Shown: positions 8,866 to 28,149, numbered from the stretch's first letter. The stretch is 64,000 bases of DNA from Candidatus Bathyarchaeota archaeon (GCA_963775685.1 CAVZJV010000014.1:640001-704000), one strand, 5' to 3'. Numbers and translations: made by a program. Notes: generated by a model from the sequence alone, not told the origin.

Positions 8866-9328
8866 GTTTCTTGGTGTTGGTTATCAAAGACTACTGACAA
8901 TTTTTAGGTTCAAGTTTATGAATTATGTGTTTGAACCAAGCATAGATGTATACTACTCCTAAAACACCAAAACCAAATAGTGACACATAGAATAACCATC
9001 AAGCACTTGGAAAAAAAGAGATTACTTCATTTCTAGTTATTGCCATTAGGACAATTTAAAAAAAATGGAGACTTCATTGAAGCAGATTGCTGGACAGAGT
9101 CTCCGACAAACGTTGTTGCGAATTAACCAAATATAACCAAAATCAATCAAGAGATAACTGAATTTTGGCGTTTTTACGTTCCTTTTTTTAAGAGAAAATA
9201 AGAATTGATTTTGTCGTCAGTGTACACTTGCCAATCTATATTATTAATCAAAAAGCTATAGACGATATTGAGCACTAAGTAAATCAATCGTTTACTTTTT
9301 GCTTAACCAAATTTGGAGAAAAGGAAAA

Positions 9329-11737
9329 ATGCAAAAAAAAGTAGCTACTATTGTATTAATAATACTATTAAGTATAACAGCTATCCCCTTGCTATCAACA
9401 ACTAAGGCTGCGACAACCTACAACTACCAAACCTTTGCTTATCTCTCTATTCGACCAAACCCTATAGGAGTCAACCAAGCTTTACTGATTAACTTTTGGA
9501 TAACACCGCCCATGCCTCAACCCGGCATTCTAGCACATGGTTACACAGTTGAAATCACACGTCCTGACGGAACCAAAGAAACTCTCGGACCATTTACTAG
9601 CATAAAGCAGACACCTCGATGTGGACCGAGTGGATACCAAAGACAGTTGGGACATATCAATTGAAAGTCATTTATCCAGGAGAAACAGTTCCCTCAGGAA
9701 CACCATATCAGAGCACCGTAATGACATCTACATTTTCAAGCAAGACAGTGGACACTTACGTTTTCGCTCCTGCTGAAAGTCCAGTAACAGAACTCATTGT
9801 ACAGGAAGAACCTATTCCTGGCTACCAACCAACTCCACTTCCAACAGAATATTGGGCACGCCCAGTATCAATCGAAAACAAAGAATGGGCCTCACTTATG
9901 GGTAACTGGGTAATGAGCAGTAACAGCCCTAATAGCGCATACTATCAGCCATATGGGGGAGGACCAGAATCGGCACACATTCTTTGGGTTAAAACCACTG
10001 GCAAAGGCGGTATAGTCGGCGACGTTTATGGAGATAGCGTATACAGCGGCGACCCACTAGGAACACGCGTTTACAGTATATGCAACTCGCTATTGCCGGA
10101 ATGGGGTACTACAGCGCACCCGATGGAGTACATTGTGTAAACTTGCGTACTGGAGAAGAGTTATGGGTTCAAAAAGGCATAACTCTGTCCCTTGCAATCG
10201 CTGAAAACTATCTTGTACGCGCTCAAGGTCCACCAGTCGATTCCTACAACGCATACTTGATGCAACTAGGTTCATATCTTTACAAATGGGATGCATACAC
10301 TGGTGAATTAATCGTCAACGTAACCGGCATGTCAGGAACCTACGACCCAACCCCCTACGACGCGGGCGACTGGGGTGTGCAAACATACGTTTACAGCACA
10401 CAGACACTTGGCGGTCAAAGATACCTAATTAAATGGACTCCGCAAGGCAATAGTAATAACTTCACCAGCAGAACCGTATACAATGTCACCTATCCGCTTG
10501 CTGGCATAACTGGAATATCGGGAAATTATGGCTTCTACTATGGCGTAACACCTAACACTGTTAACCCCTCAGGAGCGTTTGATATTAAAACAGGACAGAT
10601 AGTATGGATGAAAAACTACACTATCAACGAAGCACAGTTCTCAAGCGCTGGAACTCTAACTGAAGAGGGAATTTACGTCTATCCGAAATATTATGGTGAC
10701 CCCAATCAGCAGGGATTAAGACCACTGATGGCTATTGACATATCAAACGGGAACATTCTGTACGATTCCACTGTAACTACCTATCCTTGGGGAAGCTTTT
10801 GGAGCTACTCTAAAGCAGCAGCTTACGGTATGGTCTATTACCCAACCTACACAGGACATGTCTGGGCATTTGACGCAGCAACAGGTCAAGTTGTCTGGAA
10901 AGGCGGGTACAATCCAGTGGGCTATGAAACGCCCTATGGCTACCAACCTTTCTTTTCCTCGATTGCAGTTGCGGGCGAAAAAGTCTATGCTGGAAACGAC
11001 GAGCACAGTGAACAATCACCATATTATCAAGGAAAAGGAATGTGGTGTCTCGATGCTTACACGGGAGAAACAATATGGAACATAAGTTTCTGGTCACCGG
11101 GCTTTAACATGCAAGGACTCTTAGCCGACGGATTACTTGTGGCCACCAACTTCTATGACGGTCGCCAGTACGCCTTCGGTAAAGGCAAAGCGCAACTACA
11201 ATTGTAGCATCACCTGAAGTTACTATTCACGGATCTAGCGTACTGATAACGGGTACTGTAAATGATGTTTCCCCAAGCGCTAAAGATGACCGAGCAGTAG
11301 CATTGTATCCAAACGGTGTTCCATGTGTTTCTGAAGAGAGCCAAAGCGCATTCATGGAATATGTCTACATGCAAAAAGCAAAGCCAATGAACACAACCGG
11401 TGTTTCCGTAACATTAAGCGTTCTTGACTCCAATGGCAATTACAGAGACATAGGCACTGTAAACACTAACGCCGACGGGTACTACAGCTCAAACTGGACC
11501 CCTGACATCGATGGAACATACACTGTCTATGCTTCGTTTGCTGGCAGCACTTCCTATTGGCCATCTCATGCAATCGCAGCCTTCGCCGTTGACCCAACAT
11601 CGCAAACCCCAACACCAACAGCAGTTCCAGTTCAATCAATGGTGGATCAGTACTTCTTAACGGCTGTCATAGGCTTAGCGCTCGTAATCATCGCATGCTT
11701 TGCAGTAACGATTCTAATCCTTAGAAAACGACCCTAA
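9329..11737 (+). pseudogene. Secreted PQQ-like beta-propeller repeat protein, paralog 1 (about 3 frameshifts)
   Basis: Signal peptide, PNPIGVNQ, PLPTEYWARP, AFDAATGQVVW-type repeats, C-terminal TM + LRKRP; pieces 9299/9619/10080/11303. Confidence 0.85.
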
Positions 11738-12164: not shown

Positions 12165-14651
12165 ATGCTGAATTTAAAAAGTAAAACTATGGCTATTTTG
12201 ATTGCTATAATTCTAATGATAACCACCTTCTCTGTTTCAATTATGGCGGATGTACCTGTTGCAAATGCCCTAACTCATACTGAGTCCGATACAAATGCCT
12301 TCATAACTGTCAGTCCTAACCCCATCGGGGTTGGTCAGACAATGTTCATAATGTACTGGCTAATCCAGGCTAATCCGCTGTCAGCAGATAACTTGGAAAC
12401 TGTCTGGAAGGATTACACCTTGTTAATCACAAAACCCGATGGAACAACTGAAACTATAATAAAGAACGCCAATGCAGCGGCAGGCCAAGCTACAACATAC
12501 GTTCCTGACAAAATCGGCACCTACACTTTCAAATTTACTTTCCCTGGCCAGCAAGTAAATAGCTCAACAATTGATAATTATTATAGAAGCAGTAATGCCA
12601 CAACCACATGTACAGTGCAAGAAGAACCGATCGCTTCACTACCTCAAAACCCGCTTCCAAACGATTATTGGCAGCGCCCGGTAAACTGGGAAAACCAAGC
12701 ATGGAACTCAATCACAGGAAACTGGTTCGGTGACATCCATCTTTGGGAGAATTGGCAAGCACATGGAAAAACTCAAGGCCTCAATCCCGACACCGTGTCT
12801 CCTCAAAGTGCTCACGTACTATGGACGTTACCCATAGCTGACGGAGGACAAATCGGAGGATCAATGTATAGCGACAACGACAAAAGCAACTATTTCGTTG
12901 GCAAATCATACAAAGAGTATTGGACTCCACCGGTTATCATCAACGGAGTAATGTATTACAATAGTCCTCTTGGTATACCACCGCGCACAGGAGTTACCGC
13001 TGTAGACTTACGTACTGGAAAAGAAATATGGCATAACGAAGCAATTCCATCAATTTCATTTGGCACAGTCTACTCCGAGCATAACCCAAACGAAGTAGGA
13101 GGCTGGCCATACCTATGGTCAACAGGCGCGAACTATACAATGTATGATGCAAACACAGGAAGAAAAATTCTTGACGTCACCGGCATGTCAGGCACTCCAA
13201 TCATAGATGCAACAGGACAGTTACTTGTTTACAGATTGCAAGCAATTAACGTAACTCACGGGTTCTTATCTATGTGGAATGCAAGCAGAGGTACAGGAAG
13301 CACCGGAAATTCTCCTTGGGATAGTTGGAGCTATGATACACCTGCAGGAGGCGTCCTTACCTATGCAAAAGGAATTCAATGGAACGTTACAGTACCAATA
13401 TTTCCGCAGACCGGAAAAACAGTTGCTATCTGGGGCATAAATGACGGTGTAGTACTAGTAACTGGAGAGCAAGCAATCCAAGACTATCAAACAGAGGCAG
13501 GCTATAGCGCGTTAACAGGTGAACTTCTATGGAATACAAACCGATCGATAGGAATGCTCCATGAAACTTCCGCCCTTGTACCAGGACCCATTGCAAACGG
13601 AATCTATACAGAACACAACAAAGAAGTTGGCACCTATTGGGCTTTTGATATACATACAGGTAAACAACTTTGGGTAAGTGAACCAGATCCCAATGCTTGG
13701 AACATTTTTACCAGACAGGGAATTGGTGATGGTAACGTCTTTATGATGGCAGGAGTGGCTTCAGGAAGAGCATACAATGCCAGCACAGGTGCACTTGAGT
13801 GGGAGTTTTTTGCTCCACAAGCAGGGTTGGAAGCTGTCACGCCAACTTATCCTTTCGAAGGAATGTATAACTGTTTGGTCGGCGGCGGAATGACCTTCTT
13901 AGCGGTAACTGACAGCCACGGCGATCAGCTATTCAGAGGGGCAAAAATGTACGCTATCAACATGACAACCGGAGCGGAAGAATGGAGCATCGACGGATTC
14001 TACGGTGAAGCGCACGGAGGAGGACACGCAATGGCAGACGGGTACCTCGTAGCACACAACATGTATGACAATCAAGTCTATATCATCGGTAAAGGTCAAT
14101 CAGCGACTACAATCACTGCACCAACGATTGGTTCAACGCTTGGTTCTACCGTACTGTTACAGGGCACAGTTACAGATCAATCGCCAGGTCAAACATGCTT
14201 AGGAATACCCGCTGCAGGTACACCAGCAATCTCTGATGCAAGCATGAGTGAGTGGACTTCTTACCTCTATATGCAGAAGCAAAAACCCACAAACGCAACG
14301 GGGGTTCCAGTATCAATAGATGCAATCGATCCAAATGGCAACTTAATACACCTTGGCGATGTTACAAGCGATGCAAGCGGTCAATATAGTCTCGCATTAA
14401 ATACTAACACGCTTGCTGCAGGTGCAGGTACATACAAAGTTATCGTAAGCTTCGCAGGCTCCAAATCTTATTTCAGTTCATCCGCACAAACCTCTCTCTG
14501 CGTTACAGAAGCAGCGCCAACAACCGCTTCAGCACCTGTTGCAGCAGTATCCATGGCTGACCAATATTTCATCCCTGCAGTTGCGACAATCATCCTTGCA
14601 ATCGCTATAGGTTTCGCAGTAACAATACTAGTCCTTAGGAAGCGACCATAA
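12165..14651 (+). CDS. Secreted, membrane-anchored PQQ-like beta-propeller repeat protein, paralog 2 (intact, 828 aa)
   Basis: Signal peptide MLNLKSK..., PNPIGVGQ, AVDLRTGKEIW / AFDIHTGKQLW repeats, Ig-like C-terminal domain, TM + LRKRP. Confidence 0.9.
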   Translation: MLNLKSKTMAILIAIILMITTFSVSIMADVPVANALTHTESDTNAFITVSPNPIGVGQTMFIMYWLIQANPLSADNLETVWKDYTLLITKPDGTTETIIKNANAAAGQATTYVPDKIGTYTFKFTFPGQQVNSSTIDNYYRSSNATTTCTVQEEPIASLPQNPLPNDYWQRPVNWENQAWNSITGNWFGDIHLWENWQAHGKTQGLNPDTVSPQSAHVLWTLPIADGGQIGGSMYSDNDKSNYFVGKSYKEYWTPPVIINGVMYYNSPLGIPPRTGVTAVDLRTGKEIWHNEAIPSISFGTVYSEHNPNEVGGWPYLWSTGANYTMYDANTGRKILDVTGMSGTPIIDATGQLLVYRLQAINVTHGFLSMWNASRGTGSTGNSPWDSWSYDTPAGGVLTYAKGIQWNVTVPIFPQTGKTVAIWGINDGVVLVTGEQAIQDYQTEAGYSALTGELLWNTNRSIGMLHETSALVPGPIANGIYTEHNKEVGTYWAFDIHTGKQLWVSEPDPNAWNIFTRQGIGDGNVFMMAGVASGRAYNASTGALEWEFFAPQAGLEAVTPTYPFEGMYNCLVGGGMTFLAVTDSHGDQLFRGAKMYAINMTTGAEEWSIDGFYGEAHGGGHAMADGYLVAHNMYDNQVYIIGKGQSATTITAPTIGSTLGSTVLLQGTVTDQSPGQTCLGIPAAGTPAISDASMSEWTSYLYMQKQKPTNATGVPVSIDAIDPNGNLIHLGDVTSDASGQYSLALNTNTLAAGAGTYKVIVSFAGSKSYFSSSAQTSLCVTEAAPTTASAPVAAVSMADQYFIPAVATIILAIAIGFAVTILVLRKRP

Positions 14652-15500: not shown

Positions 15501-15629
15501 TTGGGGGCTCGTTGTCTAATTACGGACACAACTTTTGATGGATATATCACCCGCAAGACCCTATTTGTATGTACGGGTTGCATTTGCTCTTTTCTACTAT
15601 TTCGGTTCTAGAGCCCCAGCAAACCAACC
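15501..15629 (+). repeat. Structured repeat copy A (divergent 5' part)
   Basis: TTGCATTTGCTCTTTTCT core and TAGAGCCCCAGCAAACC 3' arm; TGGGGGCTC can pair with GAGCCCCA. Confidence 0.65.
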
Positions 15630-15755
15630 TGGCACTTTCTATTCAATTCTTAGCATATAAAGAAGTGATTTGTCAGAAGGAGCACTTGTTACAACATTTC
15701 TTAAACAAACCGAGAAGCAATATAGTAATTACTGAATAAAGGAGAAAACAAAAAA
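15630..15755 (+). promoter_or_regulatory. Promoter/leader of paralog 3, homologous to 19038-19162
   Basis: 26-bp identical core ACTTGTTACAACATTTCTTAAACAAA (15684-15709 = 19094-19119), then AATATAGTAATTAC and AAAGGA. Confidence 0.7.
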
Positions 15756-18384
15756 TTGCTAAATCTAAAAAACAAAAGCTTAGCTATTTTGATTGCAACA
15801 CTCTTAACAATTTCTATGGGAACTTCAATGCTTATATTACCAAATGCTAACGCACATACGCCTCCATATGAAATTCCAACATATGCCTACATCAGTGTTC
15901 AACCTAACCCCAGTTGGAGCAGGTCAGCAAGTATCCCTTAACTTCTGGATTGACAAAGTACCACCCACCGCAAACCAAGCGTGGGGAGATAGATGGGGAA
16001 ATTTCACAGTGAAAGTTACCCATCCTGATGGAACAATAGAAAATCTAGGACCTTTCACAGCTGATGCCGCTGGAGGAGCACACGCATGGTACACGCCCAG
16101 CACCGTAGGCAACTACACATTTATTTTCACTTTTGGAGGGCAAACATTGGCAGGCAACAATCTATGTCCAGGGTTCACTGCTGCTTCATATCCGAACATT
16201 GGCGATCATTATGCATCAAGCACTAGCGTACCTTATGTCTTGAACGTAGGGCAAGAGCCAACACCAATTCTACCTAACAATCCGCTTCCAACAAGCTACT
16301 GGCAACGCCCCATATTCTCAAACAACTTAGCTTGGTACCAGGTCAGCGGAAACTGGCTTGGTGGCGGCACCGGAGGAAATTCGGGATGTCAATACAATTC
16401 TACCTCAAACTATGTTCCATATTCTACAGCGCCAAATACAGCCCACATAGTTTGGACAAGGGAATACGCGCCTGGGAGGGCTCATCGGCGGCGAATTCGG
16501 CGGCAACATGGTTGACAGCATGATGATGTCAACTTCACAGTACGAGTGCAAGTTTGCGGGAGTAGTCATCAAACGGAGTACTTTACCGTACTTTGGAGCC
16601 GGGTAGTTTGAGAAACTATATGGGCTGGGAAGCAATAAACTTGCGAACTGGAGAACAAATATGGTGGCAGAATCAGTCATACACTAAATGGCTAAGGATG
16701 GGTCAAATCTTTGACTATGTGTCACCCAACCAATATGGCGGACTAGCCGACTTGTGGAGCGTTGAGGACACTGTAGCGCCAAACACTGGTCAAACATGGG
16801 GCATGTATGATGCAATGACCGGCGGCTGGATATTATCTATAGTCAATGCCACAAACCCAACCTGGGCATATGGAGAACGCGGTGAGCTACTAGGCTACTA
16901 CATCAATTCAGCCACAAAAACACTGAATATGTGGAACTCAACCAGATGCCTATTATTAGGACAAAATCCAATGCAAGTTGCCGTTTCAACTGAAGACAAC
17001 TGGCAATGGAGACCAAAAGCAGGTGCAGAAATCGACTTCAAAGTCGGAATACAATGGGCAAAACCCTTGGCAACAACCATGGTAGCCGACAACGGAACAA
17101 CAGTAGATATTTAAGATTGATGCCTGAAAAATCCGGAACTACAGCTTACCCTATGGCAATAACCAAAGTCAATAGCGTAGTAATGGTAGGTAACAGCGGA
17201 GCCGGAGGCAGATTCCAGCAACCAAGGTTCATAGTGAATGAAGCCTATGACCCGATAACAGGCGATTTGAAATGGGGTCCGACAACAATAGAATTAGATC
17301 CATGGTCTAGGATGTCAATGAGTTCTTATGGACAGGGCGTCTTCACTATATTTACTTATGAAACTCAGACAATCAGCGCCTACAGCCAAGCGACAGGACA
17401 GAAGCTATGGGGACCCGTACAGCTAACAACGCCTAATAATCCATGGGGATACTACCTTACGCAATCGATTATTGGTTATGACAAACTCTTTGTGACTGAC
17501 TTCGGAGGAAATGTCCATTGTCTCGAACTTGAAACTAGAAAATTTCTATGGAAGACCAACACTAATGATGTTGCACAAAGAGGTCCAGCAGGAGCAAATA
17601 CTCCTTATGGTATATGGACTATCGCCAACATTCTCTGCTTAGCCGACGGAAAACTTTTCACCATGGGCGGCCACCATACAGTCCACCACTTTTCAACGGC
17701 GGCGAATTAATCGCGTGGAACGCAACTACTGGAGAAAAGGTATCGAGTGATTTGCTTTTGCCATCACAAACAGCGCTAACGGTGTACTATCAGACGGCTA
17801 TCTAGTATACCAAACGCTTATGACAACCGACTTTACTGCTACGCCAAAGGTCTATCAGCCACCACCGTCTCAGCACCAGATCAGCTATCCCAGAGCGATC
17901 TTCTGTGTTGATAAAAGGCACAGTAACCGATCAGTCTCCAGGACAAACTTGCCTAGGGAGTACCTGGAAAGGGAACACCAGCAATAGCCGACGAAAGCAT
18001 GACCGAATGGATGGAATACCTCTACCCAACAACCTATGCCAACAAACGCAACTGGAGTACCAGTTAACATCGATGCCATAGATGCCAACGGCAACTACCG
18101 AAACATCGGAACTGCAACAAGCGATACAACCGGAGCATTGAGTTTAGCTGGAAACCAGATATTCCAGGAAATACACAGTGATCGCCACTTTCCCAGGAAC
18201 AGAAGCGTACTATTCATCAGCTCAGGAAACAAGCTTTGTAGTCGACCCAGTGACGCAAACAGTATCACCGCAACCAGTAGCCAAGCACCAACTACTATGT
18301 ACATAATGGGTGCAGCAATTGCAATTATCGTTGCAATCGCCGTTGTTTCGTCATAACAATACTTGTTTTAGGAAGCGACCTTAA
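15756..18384 (+). pseudogene. PQQ-like beta-propeller protein, paralog 3 (many frameshifts)
   Basis: MLNLKNK signal, NPLPTSYWQRP, AINLRTGEQIW, DQSPGQTCLG, MPTNATGVPV; ends AGG AAG CGA CCT TAA (RKRP*) at 18384. Confidence 0.85.
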
Positions 18385-18450
18385 AAATGTCATACAAAAA
18401 TCTATCTTTCCCCTTTTTTAGTCTTTTAAAAACATTGGAGAACAAGACGA

Positions 18451-18545
18451 GGGCTGAGAAGGCTCTGGAACAATTAACGAAATAGCCATAGTAAAAGAGC
18501 TTTTGCATTTGCTCTTTTCTTAAAAGCCGGAGTCACAGCAACCCC
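18451..18545 (+). repeat. Structured repeat copy B
   Basis: GGGCTGAGAAGGCTCTGG ... AAAAGAGC-TTTTGCATTT-GCTCTTTT ... CCGGAGTCACAGCAACCCC. Confidence 0.75.
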
Positions 18546-18927
18546 ATGATTCTTCAGCAAAAATGTTCCTTGAAACCGTTTTTTAAAGCATAAAAGTGTA
18601 CTGGTAGGATTTGAACCCAGGCGAAAGTGGAGATATCACCCGCAAAACCCCTTTTTTCTTTTCTATTTTGTTAGACGTATGCTTTTAAAATTTATTAACG
18701 AGCCATTTCTGCAAATTAATAAATTTTGAGCCAAGTGCGAGCTTTACTCTTTGGGTCCTTCTAAAATATCTGTTAATCGACCGCTTATCATTACCGATGG
18801 GTCAAAATTGAGTGATCGTTAGGTCGGTCTTTGTCAGTTGTACTTTATACAATATTCTGGATCTTAAGAACGATAAAAATCGTTGGAAAACAAACAAACA
18901 CACAAAAAAACCCACGAAGAAAAGATA

Positions 18928-19037
18928 GGGGCTGAATGGGCTCTGGGTTTAGTTCAAGATACCTATCCATAGTTTGTCGTGGAGAACGTTTGCATTTCGC
19001 TCTTCTCCAAAGACTCCAGAGCCTAAGCAAACCAACC
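18928..19037 (+). repeat. Structured repeat copy C
   Basis: GGGGCTGAATGGGCTCTGG ... GGAGAACG-TTTGCATTT-CGCTCTTCTCC ... CCAGAGCCTAAGCAAACC. Confidence 0.75.
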
Positions 19038-19162
19038 GATTTTTCTATCCAATTTTTTAGTATATAAGAAATGTTGATTTTGTCAGAAGAAGTACTTGTT
19101 ACAACATTTCTTAAACAAATCAAATCTAATATAGTAATTACAGATAAAAGGAAAGAACAAAA
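19038..19162 (+). promoter_or_regulatory. Promoter/leader of paralog 4
   Basis: Aligns over ~125 bp with 15630-15755; TGTT-AC-AACA dyad immediately before TATA-like TTTCTTAAAC. Confidence 0.7.
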
Positions 19163-21655
19163 ATGTTGAATCTAAAAAATAAAACTTTGACAATTTCAAT
19201 TGCTTTGCTTTTAGCATTTTCGATGATCGCTTTGCCTATCGCAGCTAACGTACCTACACATCACAAGTCAACCCACGCATATGTAAGCGCTACCCCCAAT
19301 CCAATCGGTGTCGGACAAGAAACCCTCATACACTTAGGCATCACCGACGAATTACAAGATGTTACATACGGCTGGGAAGGATTAACCGTAACAGTTACCC
19401 GACCAGACAATACAACAACAACCCTTGGTCCTTTCAGAACCGACGCTACGGGCGGAACAGGCACAATTTTCGTACCAGACCAAGTAGGCACGTACATCCT
19501 ACAGGTAAACTTCCCACCACAATGGTTCAACTGGACTACCAACGGCGGAGCCGACATCTGGTATGAAGCAAGCACAAGCGAAAAACTTGCATTAGTTGTT
19601 GACCTAACACCTGACAAATTCTACCCCGGACAACCATTACCAACAGAATATTGGACTCGACCAATCGACGATCAACTTAGGGACTGGTATCAAGTCGCTC
19701 GTGCCTGGCTAGGCTTCTTCAGCTGGCCGCACTTGGAGAGTTCGTTGAGAACAATGATACGCACTGAAACATCACACATTCTATGGGCAAAACCACAAAC
19801 AGTTGGCGGTTTAGTTGGGGACCCATACGGCACAGAAGGCTTCGAGAACGGAGACGCATATGAAGGTCTATGGGGCTACGGCTCACCAGTAATAATCGAC
19901 GGAATAATCTACTACAACAACGACAAAGACGGAGGGATTCTGGAATCGAGCACACCGTCTCAGCGATTGACCTACGCACAGGCGCAGAAATCTGGAACAG
20001 AGCACTTATCGGACCAGACAACATATCCCGATCACTTACATTCGGACAAATCTTATCCTTCAACTCATACAACTACCAAGGCGCATTCTCGTATCTCTGG
20101 GCAACAAGCGACAGCACATGGAATGCATTTGACCCCTTCTCAGGACGATTTGAATATGGCATGACTAACGTACCATCAGGCACACAAATACGCGGACCAA
20201 ACGGAGAAATACTCATCTACACAGTAGATACCACACACAACTGGATGACTCTTTGGAACTCAACCAAAGTCGTCAGCGATTCTGGCAGCTTCTTGCGCAA
20301 CGGCATGGCTTCAACCTACAAAGTAGCTTGGTCTGCTGACCGCAACGGAGGATACATGTGGAACGTAACTATACCCAATGACTTGCCCGGCGGAGCAAAC
20401 GTAGCATACTTAGACGACATAGTTGTAGGCTCAGAATTGCAATCCAGAACAGCGACAGCCAACATCTTAGGTCTCACAGGCAGCCCAATGATTCTGGGCA
20501 CTCAACGTTAAAACTGGTCAAGAAGGGCAACTACTCTACCAGAAATCATGGCAACCACCAACAGACAACCTCTCTATAACATTCGAGAAATCAAGTCTGG
20601 TCGACAACGTATTCACCATCTATAGCAAAGAACTACGCTCACACATTGCCTTTAACATGCACACAGGCGAACAAATGTGGGGGCCAACCACGCCAGATAC
20701 TATCTACAGACCTTTGGTCTTCAGAGCAACTTTGCATATGGTAAACTCTACGTAACAGGGTACGGCGGAATCGTTTACTGCTACGACGCAAAATCAGGCA
20801 ACCTTGTATGGAACTATACAGTCGTCGAACCATTTGGCGGCTCAGAAGTTCATGGAGCAACAATTGGCCAACATCAATACAGTTCATAGCAGACGGCAAA
20901 ATCTACTAGCAAACTCAGAGCACTCAGCCAACCAACCATTGCCAAGAGGCGGACCATTTTTAGCGCTCGATGCAGAAAACGGCAGTGTTGTCTTAGAATC
21001 GACGGCGCATTCCGTCAACCACGTTGGGCTGGGCAAGCCGGCATGGCAGATGGCATAATTGCTCTATTCAACACCTACGACAGCAAATCTACGGAGTCGG
21101 TAAGAGTCCAAGCCAAACAACTGTGACTGCATCACCGAAAATTTCAGAGTTCGGAAACAGCGTCTTAATTGAGGGTACAGTTCCCGAACTTCAGCAGGCA
21201 CACAGGATTCTCGTGTAACAGCACGTTTCCCCAACGGTGTAGCAGCAGTATCCGACGACAGCATGAATGACTGGATGCTATATGTCTATATGCAATTTGC
21301 ACGTCCAACAAACACAACTCGTTCCAGTAGAACTTAGCGTTATCGACACAAACGGCAACGAGCGAACAATCGGCACAACAACAAGCGACTCCAGTGGAAC
21401 ATTCAGTTATCAATGGACTCCTGACATCACAGGCAAATATACCGTTACAGCTACTTTCGCAGGCACCAACAGCTACTGGCCATCATATTCAGAAACCACC
21501 TTCGCAGTTGACCCCGCAACGTCAACACCAATCCCACTGAACCAGTTGTACAATCAGCTGATCAATACTTTATTCCTGCAGTCGCAGGCATAATCGTTGC
21601 AATCGCAATAGTTGGGGCTTTAATCGTACTCTTGATGCTTAGAAAGCGAGCATAA
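19163..21655 (+). pseudogene. PQQ-like beta-propeller protein, paralog 4 (many frameshifts)
   Basis: MLNLKNK signal, PNPIGVGQ, PLPTEYWTRP, AIDLRTGAEIW, WTPDITGKY; ends LRKRA* at 21655. Confidence 0.85.
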
Positions 21656-21709
21656 AAAGAATATGCAACCAAAAAACAACCCATCCTTTTTTAGTCAAAA
21701 AGCAATGAA

Positions 21710-21821
21710 AGAAAACTGGGCTGAGAAGGCTCTGATCAAACTAACAGTGGCCTACTCACTGTAAACGCATTTGCATTTGCGTTTCTCTCCTTGCCCCAGA
21801 GCCTCAGCAAACCAGTTTTCT
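21710..21821 (+). repeat. Structured repeat copy D (best folded)
   Basis: AGAAAACTGG-GCTGAG-AA-GGCTCTG pairs with CAGAGCC-TCAGC-AAA-CCAGTTTTCT; inner hairpins ACAGTG/CACTGT and AAACGCA/TGCGTTT. Confidence 0.8.
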
Positions 21822-22808: not shown

Positions 22809-23627
22809 CTGAAGAGAACATCTTTCTTGGTACCTGGGGGTGGAGCTACAAGGAATGGGAGGCAACTTCTACCAAAAGAAAAATATTGAAAGCAAGCTTC
22901 GAGCTTACTCTAGGGTTTTCAAGACCGCTGAAATAGATTCAACCTTCTATCGCAACCCATCCAAGGGAACGGTCATGGGTTGGCTGAAGTATTCTCCGAG
23001 CGACTTTATTTTTTCTGCTAAACTGCCAAAAACCATAACTCATGACAAAGTGCTTGGGTTGAAAAAAGATGTTAAAGCTGATTTAGAAGTATTTTTGGAT
23101 TTGATGCGTCCCCTGCAGCTTGGAGGAAAACTCGCTTGTTTGCTTATTCAGCTGCCTCCAAAATACTCATACAACCCAAAGAACCTTGAAGCGTTCTTCC
23201 AAATACTCGACCCAACATTTAGGTATGCCGTAGAGTTCCGAAACATGACATGGCTACTCCCAGCAACTGAAACCTTCGCACTCCTGAAGCAGTACGGAGT
23301 TGCTTACACGATTGTGGATGAGCCGCTTCTGCCTCCGGAAATGCATCTGACGGCTGATTTTGCATATTTCAGATGGCATGGCAAAGGAAAAGACATCTGG
23401 TTTGATTACCGATACAGCGAAAGGAGCAGCCCTGGGTTCCAAAGGTCCAGGAAACAGCCAAAAACGTCAAAAAAGTCTATGGATACTTCAACAACCACTA
23501 TCAGGGTTACGCTCCAGAGAATTGCCTATGCTTACTTGAAAAGCTTGGACTGTTATCTGATACTCAAAAAAAGGTTAAAGAAAAGTCAAAGATTAAGCAG
23601 TCGCAACTGGGTGCCTACTTTGGTTAA
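22805..23627 (+). pseudogene. Second DUF72 family protein (frameshifted)
   Basis: LGTxGWSYKEW, AEIDSTFY, AKLPKTITH, QLPP, AVEFRN, YFRWHG, YGYFNNHY. Confidence 0.85.
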
Positions 23628-24041: not shown

Positions 24042-24119
24042 TTATGGACATGCAAGCAAAGGAAAAGGGAATACAAGAATAAACTCTGAAATAAAAAACA
24101 GTCTTAGCAGAAACCGCAT
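24042..24119 (-). CDS. Hydrophobic micropeptide copy 1 (MRFLLRLFFISEFILVFPFPLLACP)
   Basis: Homologous to 25918-26001 and 26533-26622. Confidence 0.35.
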   Translation of the reverse strand: MRFLLRLFFISEFILVFPFPLLACP

Positions 24120-24248
24120 AACCGTTTCCTTACAATTTGTTAAGCCTTGGATCAAAATTTAGTCTCCCACACACCATTTCAACGTCAGCTATCATCTTTA
24201 GAACAAAGGGATGCAAACGGAACGTGCTTTGTTTGACGAGAATACATG

Positions 24249-24332
24249 TGAATGTTGTTTCATCCTGTAACAACTTAATGTTATAAACTGAATGTTGTTT
24301 CATCCTGTAACAACTTAATGTTATAAACTGAA
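24249..24332. repeat. Exact 40-bp tandem duplication
   Basis: TGAATGTTGTTTCATCCTGTAACAACTTAATGTTATAAAC x2, followed by TGAA. Confidence 0.9.
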
Positions 24333-25281: not shown

Positions 25282-25917
25282 TTTCTAATAAGCAATACGC
25301 TCTACAAAATCTTGGATTTCTGCTCTATGCGTAGAGCAAACTACGCGTCCACATATGCAGACTTTAGGAGCAACCTTGATTTTTGAATATTTTCTTGTTT
25401 AAATTATTTGGGAAACTAAGATCAGGCTGAGGGTTAACCATTTTTTTAGAAAGTAAATAATGAATAATGAATGCAATATACAATAAATAGTAAATATTTT
25501 ATCAGGATAAATGACATATGCAAAATTACAAATAATTAGACAAACAATACATACATAATTTCTCTCTTTCACATTTTTCCTTTCTTTTCTCTTTTTTTTA
25601 GTAAAGTTTCATTTTTACGCTCCAAAAATAGTTCTTAGGGATTGAATCCTGCCTAAGTAGGAACCGAATAACCGTCTCGATGCAGTAAACGCGCCTATAA
25701 TCATGTATTATTTCAGCTTGTTAGTGCCGTTACAATTTCGCCTTCTACTTCATTTCTTAGATAAAGAAAACCAAAACCGAAAATGAAAACCATACTCAAC
25801 GTAAACAAAAAACCGCAAACTATAATGTAGATAATCAGCCACGGCATTTTTTTCCCTCAGTTAGCGTTAGCTTATTAGCTGTCTATGTTTAAAGCGTTTT
25901 CTAATGAAAAGGTCTGG

Positions 25918-26001
25918 TCATGCAAGCAAAGAAAAAGGCAATACAAGAATAAACAATGAAATAAAAAATAGCCTCAGTCGGAAACGAATAACTGTTTCCA
26001 A
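25918..26001 (-). CDS. Hydrophobic micropeptide copy 2 (METVIRFRLRLFFISLFILVLPFSLLA)
   Basis: TTG start; synonymous differences versus copy 3. Confidence 0.45.
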   Translation of the reverse strand: METVIRFRLRLFFISLFILVLPFSLLA

Positions 26002-26532
26002 TCAATATACAGTGAGTAAATAGAATAATTTTAGAGATTCTTGTATAAAATTTAAACCTCAAAAACTAAAACAACTTACGCTTTTATGTTAAATATTTGC
26101 TGAAAAATGGGGATGGTTGGCTGAAACTAATATTGTGTGCTTTAGGTTTTGTCGTTTTCGCCGACTATTTCAGCCATTTTCTTAATTCCGTTTTCGGCGT
26201 TTGCTCCCGTCCGAAAGCAAGTACATTGGCTTTTCGTTTCTTAGCAAATCAATGCAGTTTTAGAAATCATCCAAGTGATTGTGTATATTCTTATTTTGCG
26301 TGCCAGCCTGCGTCTGTGGGTAGAGTAGCCCCATTTGCATGAAAAATTAGTTGACCTATGTATTTTCCTGCGCTTTTCAGCCAAATTCTATGTGGAAACT
26401 TATTTGAAGAATACATTACTTCATACTCTTCGATTTTTATAGATTGTACCCAAACAAATCGCCACTATATTTTATATGCAGATAGAACTTAAATTCCTTA
26501 CGAGGTGGCTTGAAGGATTAGAGAATAACACG

Positions 26533-26622
26533 TTAAAGGAATGAAATTAGAGAACAAAGAAACACAAGAATAAACAATGTAATACGAAGCAGCCTTAGCC
26601 GAAAACGGATAGCCGCCTTCAT
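26533..26622 (-). CDS. Hydrophobic micropeptide copy 3 (MKAAIRFRLRLLRITLFILVFLCSLISFL)
   Basis: ATG...TAA, 29 aa; RFRLRL and LFILV conserved with third-position changes. Confidence 0.45.
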   Translation of the reverse strand: MKAAIRFRLRLLRITLFILVFLCSLISFL

Positions 26623-26735
26623 ACGTGATATTCAAGCTATGCATTAAAATTTAATCTTTTTCCCCCTCTTGATTCTCACTAACTACTACTGCCCGTTTCT
26701 CTCATCTAACTACTCTCTACTTCTCTCTCTCTCCT

Positions 26736-27951: not shown

Positions 27952-28149
27952 GACTATCAATATTCAAACGAGGAAATAGATGCGTGGGTGCCAAAAGGTC
28001 AGGAAACAAGCAAATCGGTAAAGAAGATTTATGGATTCTTCAACAACCTCTACCACGGTTATGTTCCTGAGAACAGTTTGTACTTGCTTGAAATACTCGG
28101 GTTGCTATCTGACTCTCAAAAGAAAGCTAAAAGAGAAGTCAAAGGTTAA
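27952..28149 (+). pseudogene. Isolated C-terminal fragment of a DUF72 gene
   Basis: DYQYSNEEIDAWVPK...KIYGFFNNLYHGYVPENSLYLLEILGLLSDSQKK aligns with 23404-23580. Confidence 0.8.

Follow-up and report, generated by a model that had tools for sequence, protein, structure and literature searches.

The window analyzed here is a 64,000-nt stretch of DNA from a Candidatus Bathyarchaeota archaeon (GCA_963775685.1, CAVZJV010000014.1:640001-704000). It contains four tandem paralogs of ~830-960 amino acids (aa), with a signal peptide, a PQQ_2 beta-propeller, an Ig-like domain and a C-terminal anchor, together with copies of an element of ~105-120 nt lying next to them. This element belongs to a real, selected and structured family that is new to the databases and papers searched, and its interior is antisense to the translation start sites of the same surface-protein genes. 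On balance, we favor its interpretation as a trans-acting antisense RNA module that, presented on a conserved scaffold, would act against the start sites of its own gene family. The paralogs and element copies of the window on which the argument is built are the following (ORF, open reading frame; CM, covariance model).

12165-14651, + strand: paralog 2, intact, 828 aa, with a C-terminal membrane anchor (Pfam PQQ_2, E 1e-12) and no element directly 3' of it.
15578-15629, + strand: copy A, partial, comprising the loop, the CU tract, the 3' arm and the AAACC tail, its 5' half being unrelated sequence (partial nhmmer match, model positions 62-108 / 63-113).
15756-18356, + strand: paralog 3, frameshifted, legible across several frames only.
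18410-18450, + strand: upstream module of copy B, made of CCCC and T6 (the paralog 3 terminator), AGT, an A/T-rich TATA-like box and a TTGGAG motif.
18449-18547, + strand: copy B, full, 88 nt past the last ORF piece of frameshifted paralog 3 (CM score 86.3 bits).
18927-19037, + strand: copy C, full, 123 nt 5' of the start of paralog 4 (CM score 42.1 bits).
19163-21655, + strand: paralog 4, frameshifted, legible across several frames only, with its stop codon at 21653-21655.
21683-21715, + strand: upstream module of copy D, a T6 run (21687-21692) followed by an A-rich spacer.
21716-21819, + strand: copy D, full, behind frameshifted paralog 4 (CM score 104 bits, predicted fold -36.3 kcal/mol, z -4.1).

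The initial annotation of this DNA had credited copies A to D with a single architecture. That holds for the full copies B, C and D, which are alignable end to end, and not for copy A, a 3' half that is homologous over 15578-15629 only, from the loop to the 3' arm; positions 15501-15577 are non-homologous to the element and hold an unrelated repeated motif instead. The pattern of the 5' arm has three exact occurrences in the window, all on the + strand (18451, 18929 and 21718), compared to 0.53 expected, and 2 of 100 shuffles reached three. The layout A-[paralog 3]-B ... C-[paralog 4]-D is real, and copy C lies ~25 nt 5' of the TATA-like box of paralog 4.

Like paralogs 3 and 4, paralog 1 (9299-11737) is split over several frames, and at least one shift, read by eye near 15900, sits at a homopolymer; the split-frame paralogs of the window may be true pseudogenes or may reflect errors of local assembly, and the elements that follow them are intact. 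The leader/promoter regions of paralogs 3 and 4 (15669-15754 and 19079-19163) are 86-95% identical and include a TATA-like ATATAA ~25-30 nt past copies A and C, and a third similar leader is found at C14:2303282-2303371. The source genome as a whole holds 34 intact paralogs. In 33 of these, a run of at least five T lies 16-41 nt past the stop codon, usually as CTTTCCCC-TTTTTT-AGT, thereby marking the run as the terminator of the gene. An element follows 15 of the 34 intact paralogs, and some copies are decayed. One paralog and the element upstream of it are contained in a near-identical inverted duplication, the two parts of which are ~770 kb apart in the source genome (C14:50.7-53.8 kb and 819.2-822.2 kb; branch lengths of the paralog, 0.003 and 0.0095).

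Both the source genome and other genomes were searched and the neighboring genes recorded, as the initial annotation had proposed, and this revealed a family that is genome- and genus-wide and placed behind paralog terminators. A profile built from B, C and D (one iteration, E<0.01) detected 33 element loci in the 3.06-Mb source genome, spread over 7 contigs and both strands. Twenty-one of them lie 45-131 nt 3' of a co-oriented paralog or paralog fragment, and five have no paralog within 3.5 kb. The median distance from the oligo-T terminator to the element is ~29 nt. Gene-bracketing by two elements, the arrangement that the initial annotation had described for the four copies, occurs in five cases; the usual place is downstream of the gene. 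A covariance-model search found the element in 21 of the 24 other genomes of the genus, in 1-20 copies each. Among 16 genomes from other genera of the order, it was found only in G040, which belongs to another family (genomes compared are given G-labels, G000 being the source genome), with 15 matches in this search and 12 at a stricter cut-off. The paralog protein family is encoded by all 24 genus genomes and by G040, and by none of the 15 other genomes of the order, so that the distributions of element and protein family are matched (genus plus G040). At 23 of the 28 loci from relatives, the C-terminal half of a co-oriented paralog ends just 5' of the element, and the paralogs at relatives' loci share 30-76% protein identity with those of the source genome.

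The 18-mer of the 3' arm has at least 126 exact matches in public genomes, and 72 of the 80 among the matches listed fall in Bathyarchaeota or Bathyarchaeia metagenome-assembled genomes. All seven archaeal 18-mer loci checked carry the element (one is cut by a contig end), whereas none of eight bacterial loci has a convincing copy, the best being a partial 13.6-bit match (E 0.036). A viral origin was rejected, the sole IMG/VR match being the edge of a provirus record that opens with a paralog tail and an element. The first ~1.9 kb of that record (L277/L278, bases 601-1854) resembles host flank rather than virus.

A first RNAalifold run on a plain MAFFT alignment yielded 5 pairs only, with the internal hairpins misaligned; the structure used instead was written by hand on a seed of 9 sequences, and the copies were realigned with a covariance model. 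The fold common to B, C and D begins with GG, GCUGA, a 3-nt bulge, GGCUCUGG and a variable interior with the hairpin loop UUUGCAUUU, and its 3' half consists of a CU-rich single strand, CCAGAGCC, UCAGC, AAA and CC. The two arms pair as originally described, in a bipartite closing stem with conserved bulges (GCUGA/UCAGC and GGCUCUGG/CCAGAGCC), and the hairpin stem does vary between copies while its loop is kept. In copy D, the top-scoring source-genome copy under the covariance model, the parts are:

21718-21735, + strand: 5' arm, with GG, GCTGA (outer helix), the 3-nt bulge GAA and GGCTCTG(A) (inner helix).
21763-21784, + strand: hairpin P3, AAACGCA / loop TTTGCATT / TGCGTTT, the loop being complementary to the start context AAATGCAAA.
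21785-21795, + strand: CU-rich single-stranded tract CTCTCCTTGCC, which complements the purine-rich Shine-Dalgarno region of the paralogs.
21796-21813, + strand: 3' arm, with CCAGAGCC, TCAGC, the bulge AAA and CC, the most conserved 18-mer of the family.

In 101 distinct copies taken from the other genomes only, 91.3% of cells are paired and 15 of the 20 modeled pairs show double changes (155 cells). None of the five measures was reached by any of 500 shuffles, and pairing falls to 20-54% when the partner is slid by 1-3 columns. A 55-copy set that includes the source genome agrees. Since covariance-model alignments are fitted to the model, we repeated two of the tests without alignment: the conserved loop is enclosed by a hairpin stem of 4 or more Watson-Crick pairs in 78 of 128 copies, with 42 distinct inner stems among them, and the 8-bp stem anchored on invariant neighbors pairs at 91.6%, the maximum of 1000 partner shuffles being 89.2%. 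Of the two options left by the initial annotation, a new structured non-coding RNA family is thus favored by the covariation and by the lack of an Rfam match (see below). The 5-bp outer helix GCUGA/UCAGC shows no covariation in the 101 copies; its fifth pair is A-U in 78 and a mismatch, mostly A-C, in 23, and pairing reaches 93% at the outermost two G-C positions. No support was found for the closing stem continuing into the flanks (-2.30 kcal/mol compared to -2.12 kcal/mol for unrelated copies, 1109 of 5000 permutations). Within the hairpin, G-U exceeds A-C on the + strand (54:15, and 19:10 in the alignment-free set). The predicted unpaired probability is 0.73 for the loop, 0.61 for the tract and 0.43 for the whole element (n = 52), so that, by prediction, accessibility in the fold lies with these two segments. 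Two further pairings were rejected, namely a general second hairpin P2 (z < -2 in 18% of 141 copies, mean z -0.35) and base pairing between the purine-rich TTGGAG... leader and the CU tract (own -6.30 kcal/mol, between copies -6.36 kcal/mol, 3140 of 5000 permutations).

Rfam 15 gave no match in the 64-kb window at gathering thresholds, and its permissive mode gave a single chance match (E 0.69), outside the element, for nine element loci; ARAGORN found no tRNA or tmRNA gene in the window. C/D RNAs are marked by RUGAUGA and CUGA boxes, H/ACA RNAs by an ACA box with a pocket and K-turns by tandem sheared G-A pairs next to a 3-nt bulge; none of these motifs was found in the aligned arms. A hammerhead-like CUGANGA core was rejected by inspection. 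No description of the element was found in the literature searched.

The translation initiation region of the paralogs reads UUAGGAGAAAGAAAAAUGCAAAA in the source genome, and its reverse complement is what the element carries on the + strand between the start of the hairpin loop and the end of the CU tract. The loop UUUGCAUUU complements AAAUGCAAA, that is, the start codon and the first base of the second codon, and the tract UCUUUCUCCUAA complements the Shine-Dalgarno region. In copy B the corresponding feature is:

18501-18526, + strand: anti-start-codon and anti-ribosome-binding-site segment (from the sequence and its antisense alignment), composed of the loop TTTTGCATTT (18501-18510), the hairpin's 3' strand (18511-18518) and the tract next to it (18519-18526).

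This segment forms a 24-nt antisense alignment with the 5' end of the paralog at C14:793673. The antisense alignment of one copy covers 55 nt, from -22 to +33 of a paralog, and takes in ACUAUGGCUA of the signal-peptide codons, the middle alone being replaced by the 5' strand of the hairpin. The interior of the element therefore derives from the 5' end of a paralog by partial copying in inverted orientation. Specificity was assessed with 34 intact paralogs against 2534 other ORFs. When reverse-complemented interiors were compared with gene 5' regions, 14 of the 34 paralogs and 6 of the 2534 other ORFs reached a local score of at least 20, and 8 and none, respectively, a score of at least 22. 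Duplexes between elements and start regions had energies at or below -22 kcal/mol for 12 of 34 paralogs and 98 of 2534 other ORFs, and at or below -25 kcal/mol for 6 and 21, respectively; the strongest duplex with a paralog reached -33.8 kcal/mol. Judged on sequence, then, the complementarity to the ribosome-binding site and start codon is extended and specific to the paralog family. A small minus-strand ORF starting at the loop ATG was rejected as coding, as it runs for 51 codons in B and meets a stop after 6 in D.

The antisense segment also follows its targets across lineages. The paralogs of G040 are ~33% identical in protein and their start regions read UUGAAGGAAUGAAUAAAUGAAA, and the G040 elements read UUUUCAUUUUUUCAUUCCUUCAA, the reverse complement of these. 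Loops are UUUGCAUUU in the genus, where paralogs start with AUG CAA, and UUUUCAUUUU in G040, where they start with AUG AAA or GAA and none of 15 starts with AUG C; a C after AUG goes with G in the loop, whereas A or G in that place goes with U. Mean duplex energies between a genome's own elements and its own paralog start regions are -14.7 kcal/mol in the source genome, -15.0 kcal/mol in G007 and -18.8 kcal/mol in G040, compared to -10.1 to -13.9 kcal/mol for pairs across lineages (genus with G040). Alignment scores are ordered in the same way, with the same-sense control lower throughout. As the shared scaffold argues for a single origin, this tracking of start sites amounts to co-evolution.

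Within a genome, an element usually matches the start region of the gene in front of it poorly (mean rank 22 of 34, range 1-34, for 13 pairs in the source genome; mean rank 9.4 of 15 for 8 pairs in G040), and pairing in cis with the gene's own start site was rejected for this reason. In the source genome, paralogs lacking an element are better targets than carriers (mean -16.6 kcal/mol for 19 genes compared to -12.3 kcal/mol for 15 genes; Mann-Whitney P = 0.0036, the genes not being independent). This pattern fits trans action on sibling genes. It speaks against intramolecular pairing in an mRNA, and also against a gene having been inverted between its 5' end and the element behind it.

What computation shows is the element family with its fold and position, together with the complementarity, the specificity of that complementarity and its tracking of lineages; of these, the genome- and genus-wide extent, the place after the paralog terminator and the core antisense to the ribosome-binding site and start codon go beyond the initial annotation. 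The model that we favor would connect them as follows. The module would descend from the 5' end of a PQQ-propeller surface-protein gene, copied in inverted orientation, and would be made as a small structured antisense RNA on the strand of the upstream gene, either by terminator read-through or from a T/A-rich box ~26 nt 5' of the GGG start. The conserved closing stem would clamp it and expose the loop (UUUGCAUUU against AAAUGCAAA) as well as the CU-rich strand UCUUUUCUCCUAA, complementary to the family's ribosome-binding region. Pairing in trans with the translation initiation regions of sibling mRNAs may then block their translation or trigger their decay, which would amount to family-wide control of which surface proteins get made. 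Upstream of GGG, the base profile is C-rich, then T-rich (-35 to -24) and A-rich (-23 to -17), with a pyrimidine-purine step before G, and conservation ends sharply at the T-rich/A-rich box. Archaeal TATA boxes obey a spacing rule relative to the start site, and this profile would fit a putative TATA box and start site of that kind. The T-run of the profile doubles as the terminator of the gene, which makes read-through an alternative source of the putative RNA.

Several points weigh against this model. Transcription, pairing in vivo and repression are steps that we infer. Covariance-model alignments are biased towards the modeled structure, start codons were chosen heuristically, and because paralogs and genomes are related, the tests overstate significance. 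Purine-rich ribosome-binding regions are common, as indicated by the 98 of 2534 other ORFs that reach -22 kcal/mol. The 8-bp closing stem is a helix without strand signal, G-U being about as frequent as A-C (42:37 and 26:20), so that the argument for a + strand fold once drawn from the G-U pairs of copy B is not general. The promoter reading relies on base composition, and an oligo-T terminator separates gene and element for 33 of 34 paralogs, meaning that any read-through must be partial. A run of five or more T within 30 nt 3' of the element was found for only 17 of 129 copies, so that the putative RNA has no oligo-T to mark its 3' end. Finally, since 15 of the 34 intact paralogs carry an element and some copies are decayed, no single gene depends on it.

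A bolder extension, which we regard as doubtful, is a self-regulating antisense network of ~35 paralogs, in which the RNA of a carrier gene would silence the start sites of the siblings, that of the carrier having drifted beyond its reach, so that the cell would display only a subset of its surface proteins; the scaffold might mature through the splicing endonuclease into a stable circular RNA. If true, such a network would be an archaeal, RNA-based counterpart of the mutually exclusive expression of surface antigens in eukaryotic parasites.

Among the alternatives, the one that survives best, though we consider it unlikely, is a substrate for recombination at the DNA level, either as portable homology or as a folded single-strand site, that would drive conversion, duplication or inversion of paralogs and diversify their repertoire. 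Elements have been exchanged. In a quick paralog tree, carriers are scattered over the whole tree and well-supported branches force at least 7 gains or losses. Subtypes of the element group by genomic neighborhood and not by the protein tree: one subtype includes both C14:1896k and 1902k, although the deepest split of the tree separates the two proteins. A mosaic structure is seen in copy B, its 5' part resembling the copies at C14:2300k and 2055k (block identities 85-96%) and its 3' part and flank the copy at C14:72k (95%), with a junction at 18494-18517, in the hairpin. Subtype pattern and mosaic together indicate exchange by recombination, and the five element-gene-element brackets and the balance of G-U and A-C in the closing stem count for the same alternative. 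This exchange, however, may be a by-product of sequence conservation, and plain homology would need neither a covarying hairpin, nor a conserved loop, nor the tracking of ribosome-binding sites. The 5' end of the gene that it follows ranks among an element's worst matches, which speaks against inversion within a gene. The recombination or transposition substrate offered as second option by the initial annotation found no support: position and orientation relative to one gene family are fixed, no integron integrase (TIGR02249) was over the cut-off in any of 41 genomes, the weak matches coming from generic tyrosine recombinases only, and the Y1 transposase does not follow the element, PF01797 (Y1 HUH) having no match in the source genome, in G040, or in G003, G007 and G012, which have 12-20 elements each.

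Integron attC sites in particular end in an inverse core RYYYAAC (5') and a core GTTRRRY (3'). Such core sites are absent from the element, the ends of which read GGGCTGAG... and ...CTCAGCAAACC in nearly all 101 copies. Integron attC sites, which have been reported in Archaea too (10.1101/2022.02.06.479319 / PMC9668308), resemble the element in that they are folded imperfect palindromes of ~100 nt directly behind an ORF, in gene orientation and sometimes in arrays. Unlike them, the element lacks RYYYAAC and GTTRRRY, its 'cassettes' would all belong to one gene family, and its copies are dispersed on both strands. Integron attC was rejected on these grounds, that is, the lack of core sites and integrase, adjacent genes of one family only and copies on both strands.

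An RNA role other than antisense appears improbable as the sole explanation. The element would then be a processing or stability module of the paralog transcript or of a small RNA, and its closing stem would be cut by the archaeal splicing endonuclease to give a circularized piece of ~100 nt. The predicted fold has two 3-nt bulges on opposite strands, in a polarity and spacing that resemble those of a bulge-helix-bulge, 5' G-(A/U)-(A/G) and 3' AAA, around a central helix of four near-invariant pairs, GCUG/CAGC. The bulge-helix-bulge is the substrate of that endonuclease (PMC7714728), and the element shares with such substrates a long inner helix, a short central one and a 3-nt bulge on each strand, in the right polarity. 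It differs in that its central helix is 4 bp plus an A-U or A-C apposition, its outer helix is 2-3 bp and the helix sequence is invariant, and cleavage is putative. Because 78 of 101 copies have a fifth apposition, A-U, the helix departs from a clean 4 bp; the outer helix amounts to two G-C pairs, and its extension is unsupported; and an enzyme that reads shape would not require an invariant helix sequence. Processing by itself leaves the antisense match unexplained, yet it could coexist with the antisense model as a route of RNA maturation. Central helix length and outer helix are only partly canonical, and we therefore treat the likeness as a lead offered by a predicted fold.

We consider it very unlikely that the element is a passive relic, which would stem from an old, partial and inverted duplication of a paralog 5' end and would have multiplied without function as the family expanded. 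The inverted homology of its interior to that 5' end would be expected of such a relic, as would its retention by only 15 of 34 intact paralogs, the existence of decayed copies and the gains or losses required by the paralog tree. However, the element is still alignable as DNA where the adjacent proteins are down to 30-35% identity, two helices show compensatory changes, the antisense segment tracks lineage-specific changes of the start site, and intact, top-scoring copies stand behind frameshifted genes.

Least credible of all is a mobile miniature element inserting near terminators (miniature inverted-repeat transposable element, MITE; repetitive extragenic palindrome, REP; or an IS200/IS605 derivative), which imperfect terminal inverted repeats, many dispersed copies and the few orphans might suggest and which was rejected on account of the fixed position and orientation by one gene family, a distribution identical to that of this family, an interior derived from it and the absence of Y1 from element-rich genomes, including the source genome. 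No target-site duplications were apparent in the flanks inspected, and no formal search for them was made.

Other repeats were noted in the window. A tRNA-like 3' fragment on the minus strand (18598-18663) comprises a T-arm-like GGGTTCAAATCC followed by the motif GATATCACCCGCAA; similar stretches occur at C14:796645, 800663, 1461384 and 1467723, and the motif recurs within the copy A region (15543-15562) and at C14:2279228. The fragment and motif could be what is left of an integration site. At 24249-24328, TGAATGTTGTTTCATCCTGTAACAACTTAATGTTATAAAC occurs twice in a perfect 40-nt tandem duplication. Two families of dispersed direct repeats lie 3' of the paralog cluster (23433-23579 / 27985-28131 and 24045-24136 / 25915-26006 / 26536-26627; 66-82% identity), suggesting a further set of genes that was duplicated locally.

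Bathyarchaeia, which are uncultured archaea, abound in soils, peat and sediments, and to our knowledge almost nothing is known about their gene regulation. The element provides a candidate family of regulatory RNAs that is open to testing, numbers hundreds of copies and goes with the largest family of surface proteins that these genomes encode, and its covariance model and start-site tracking permit a direct search for the RNA in existing peat and soil metatranscriptomes. If the antisense model holds, it would represent a new way for a prokaryote to coordinate a multigene surface family and a clean case in which inverted copying of a target gave rise to its own regulator.

Parts of this model have precedents. 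RNA-OUT of IS10 is a stable stem-loop, the loop of which starts pairing with the ribosome-binding site and start codon of RNA-IN, resulting in multicopy inhibition in trans; it overlaps its target gene and is perfectly complementary to it. The element resembles RNA-OUT in setting a loop against a start site and in its proposed trans action on a repeated gene. It differs in lying behind the 3' end of the gene, in being an inverted partial copy with a separate closing stem, in matching siblings over its own gene and in being archaeal. Plant microRNA genes are born by inverted duplication of their targets, and Giardia and Plasmodium control surface-protein families by antisense RNA or RNA interference. 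The element would share with the former a regulator derived from an inverted target copy, and with the latter an antisense RNA tied to the choice of the expressed family member; those systems use Dicer/Argonaute or chromatin machinery, none of which is implied here. Within the Archaea, sRNA162 of Methanosarcina mazei is a trans-acting small RNA that masks ribosome-binding sites (PMC3510493). The two have in common that they are small archaeal RNAs, putative in the case of the element, for which pairing with the translation initiation regions of targets is proposed; unlike the sRNA162 type, single-copy and with few unrelated targets, the element is present at 33 loci attached to a matched gene family.

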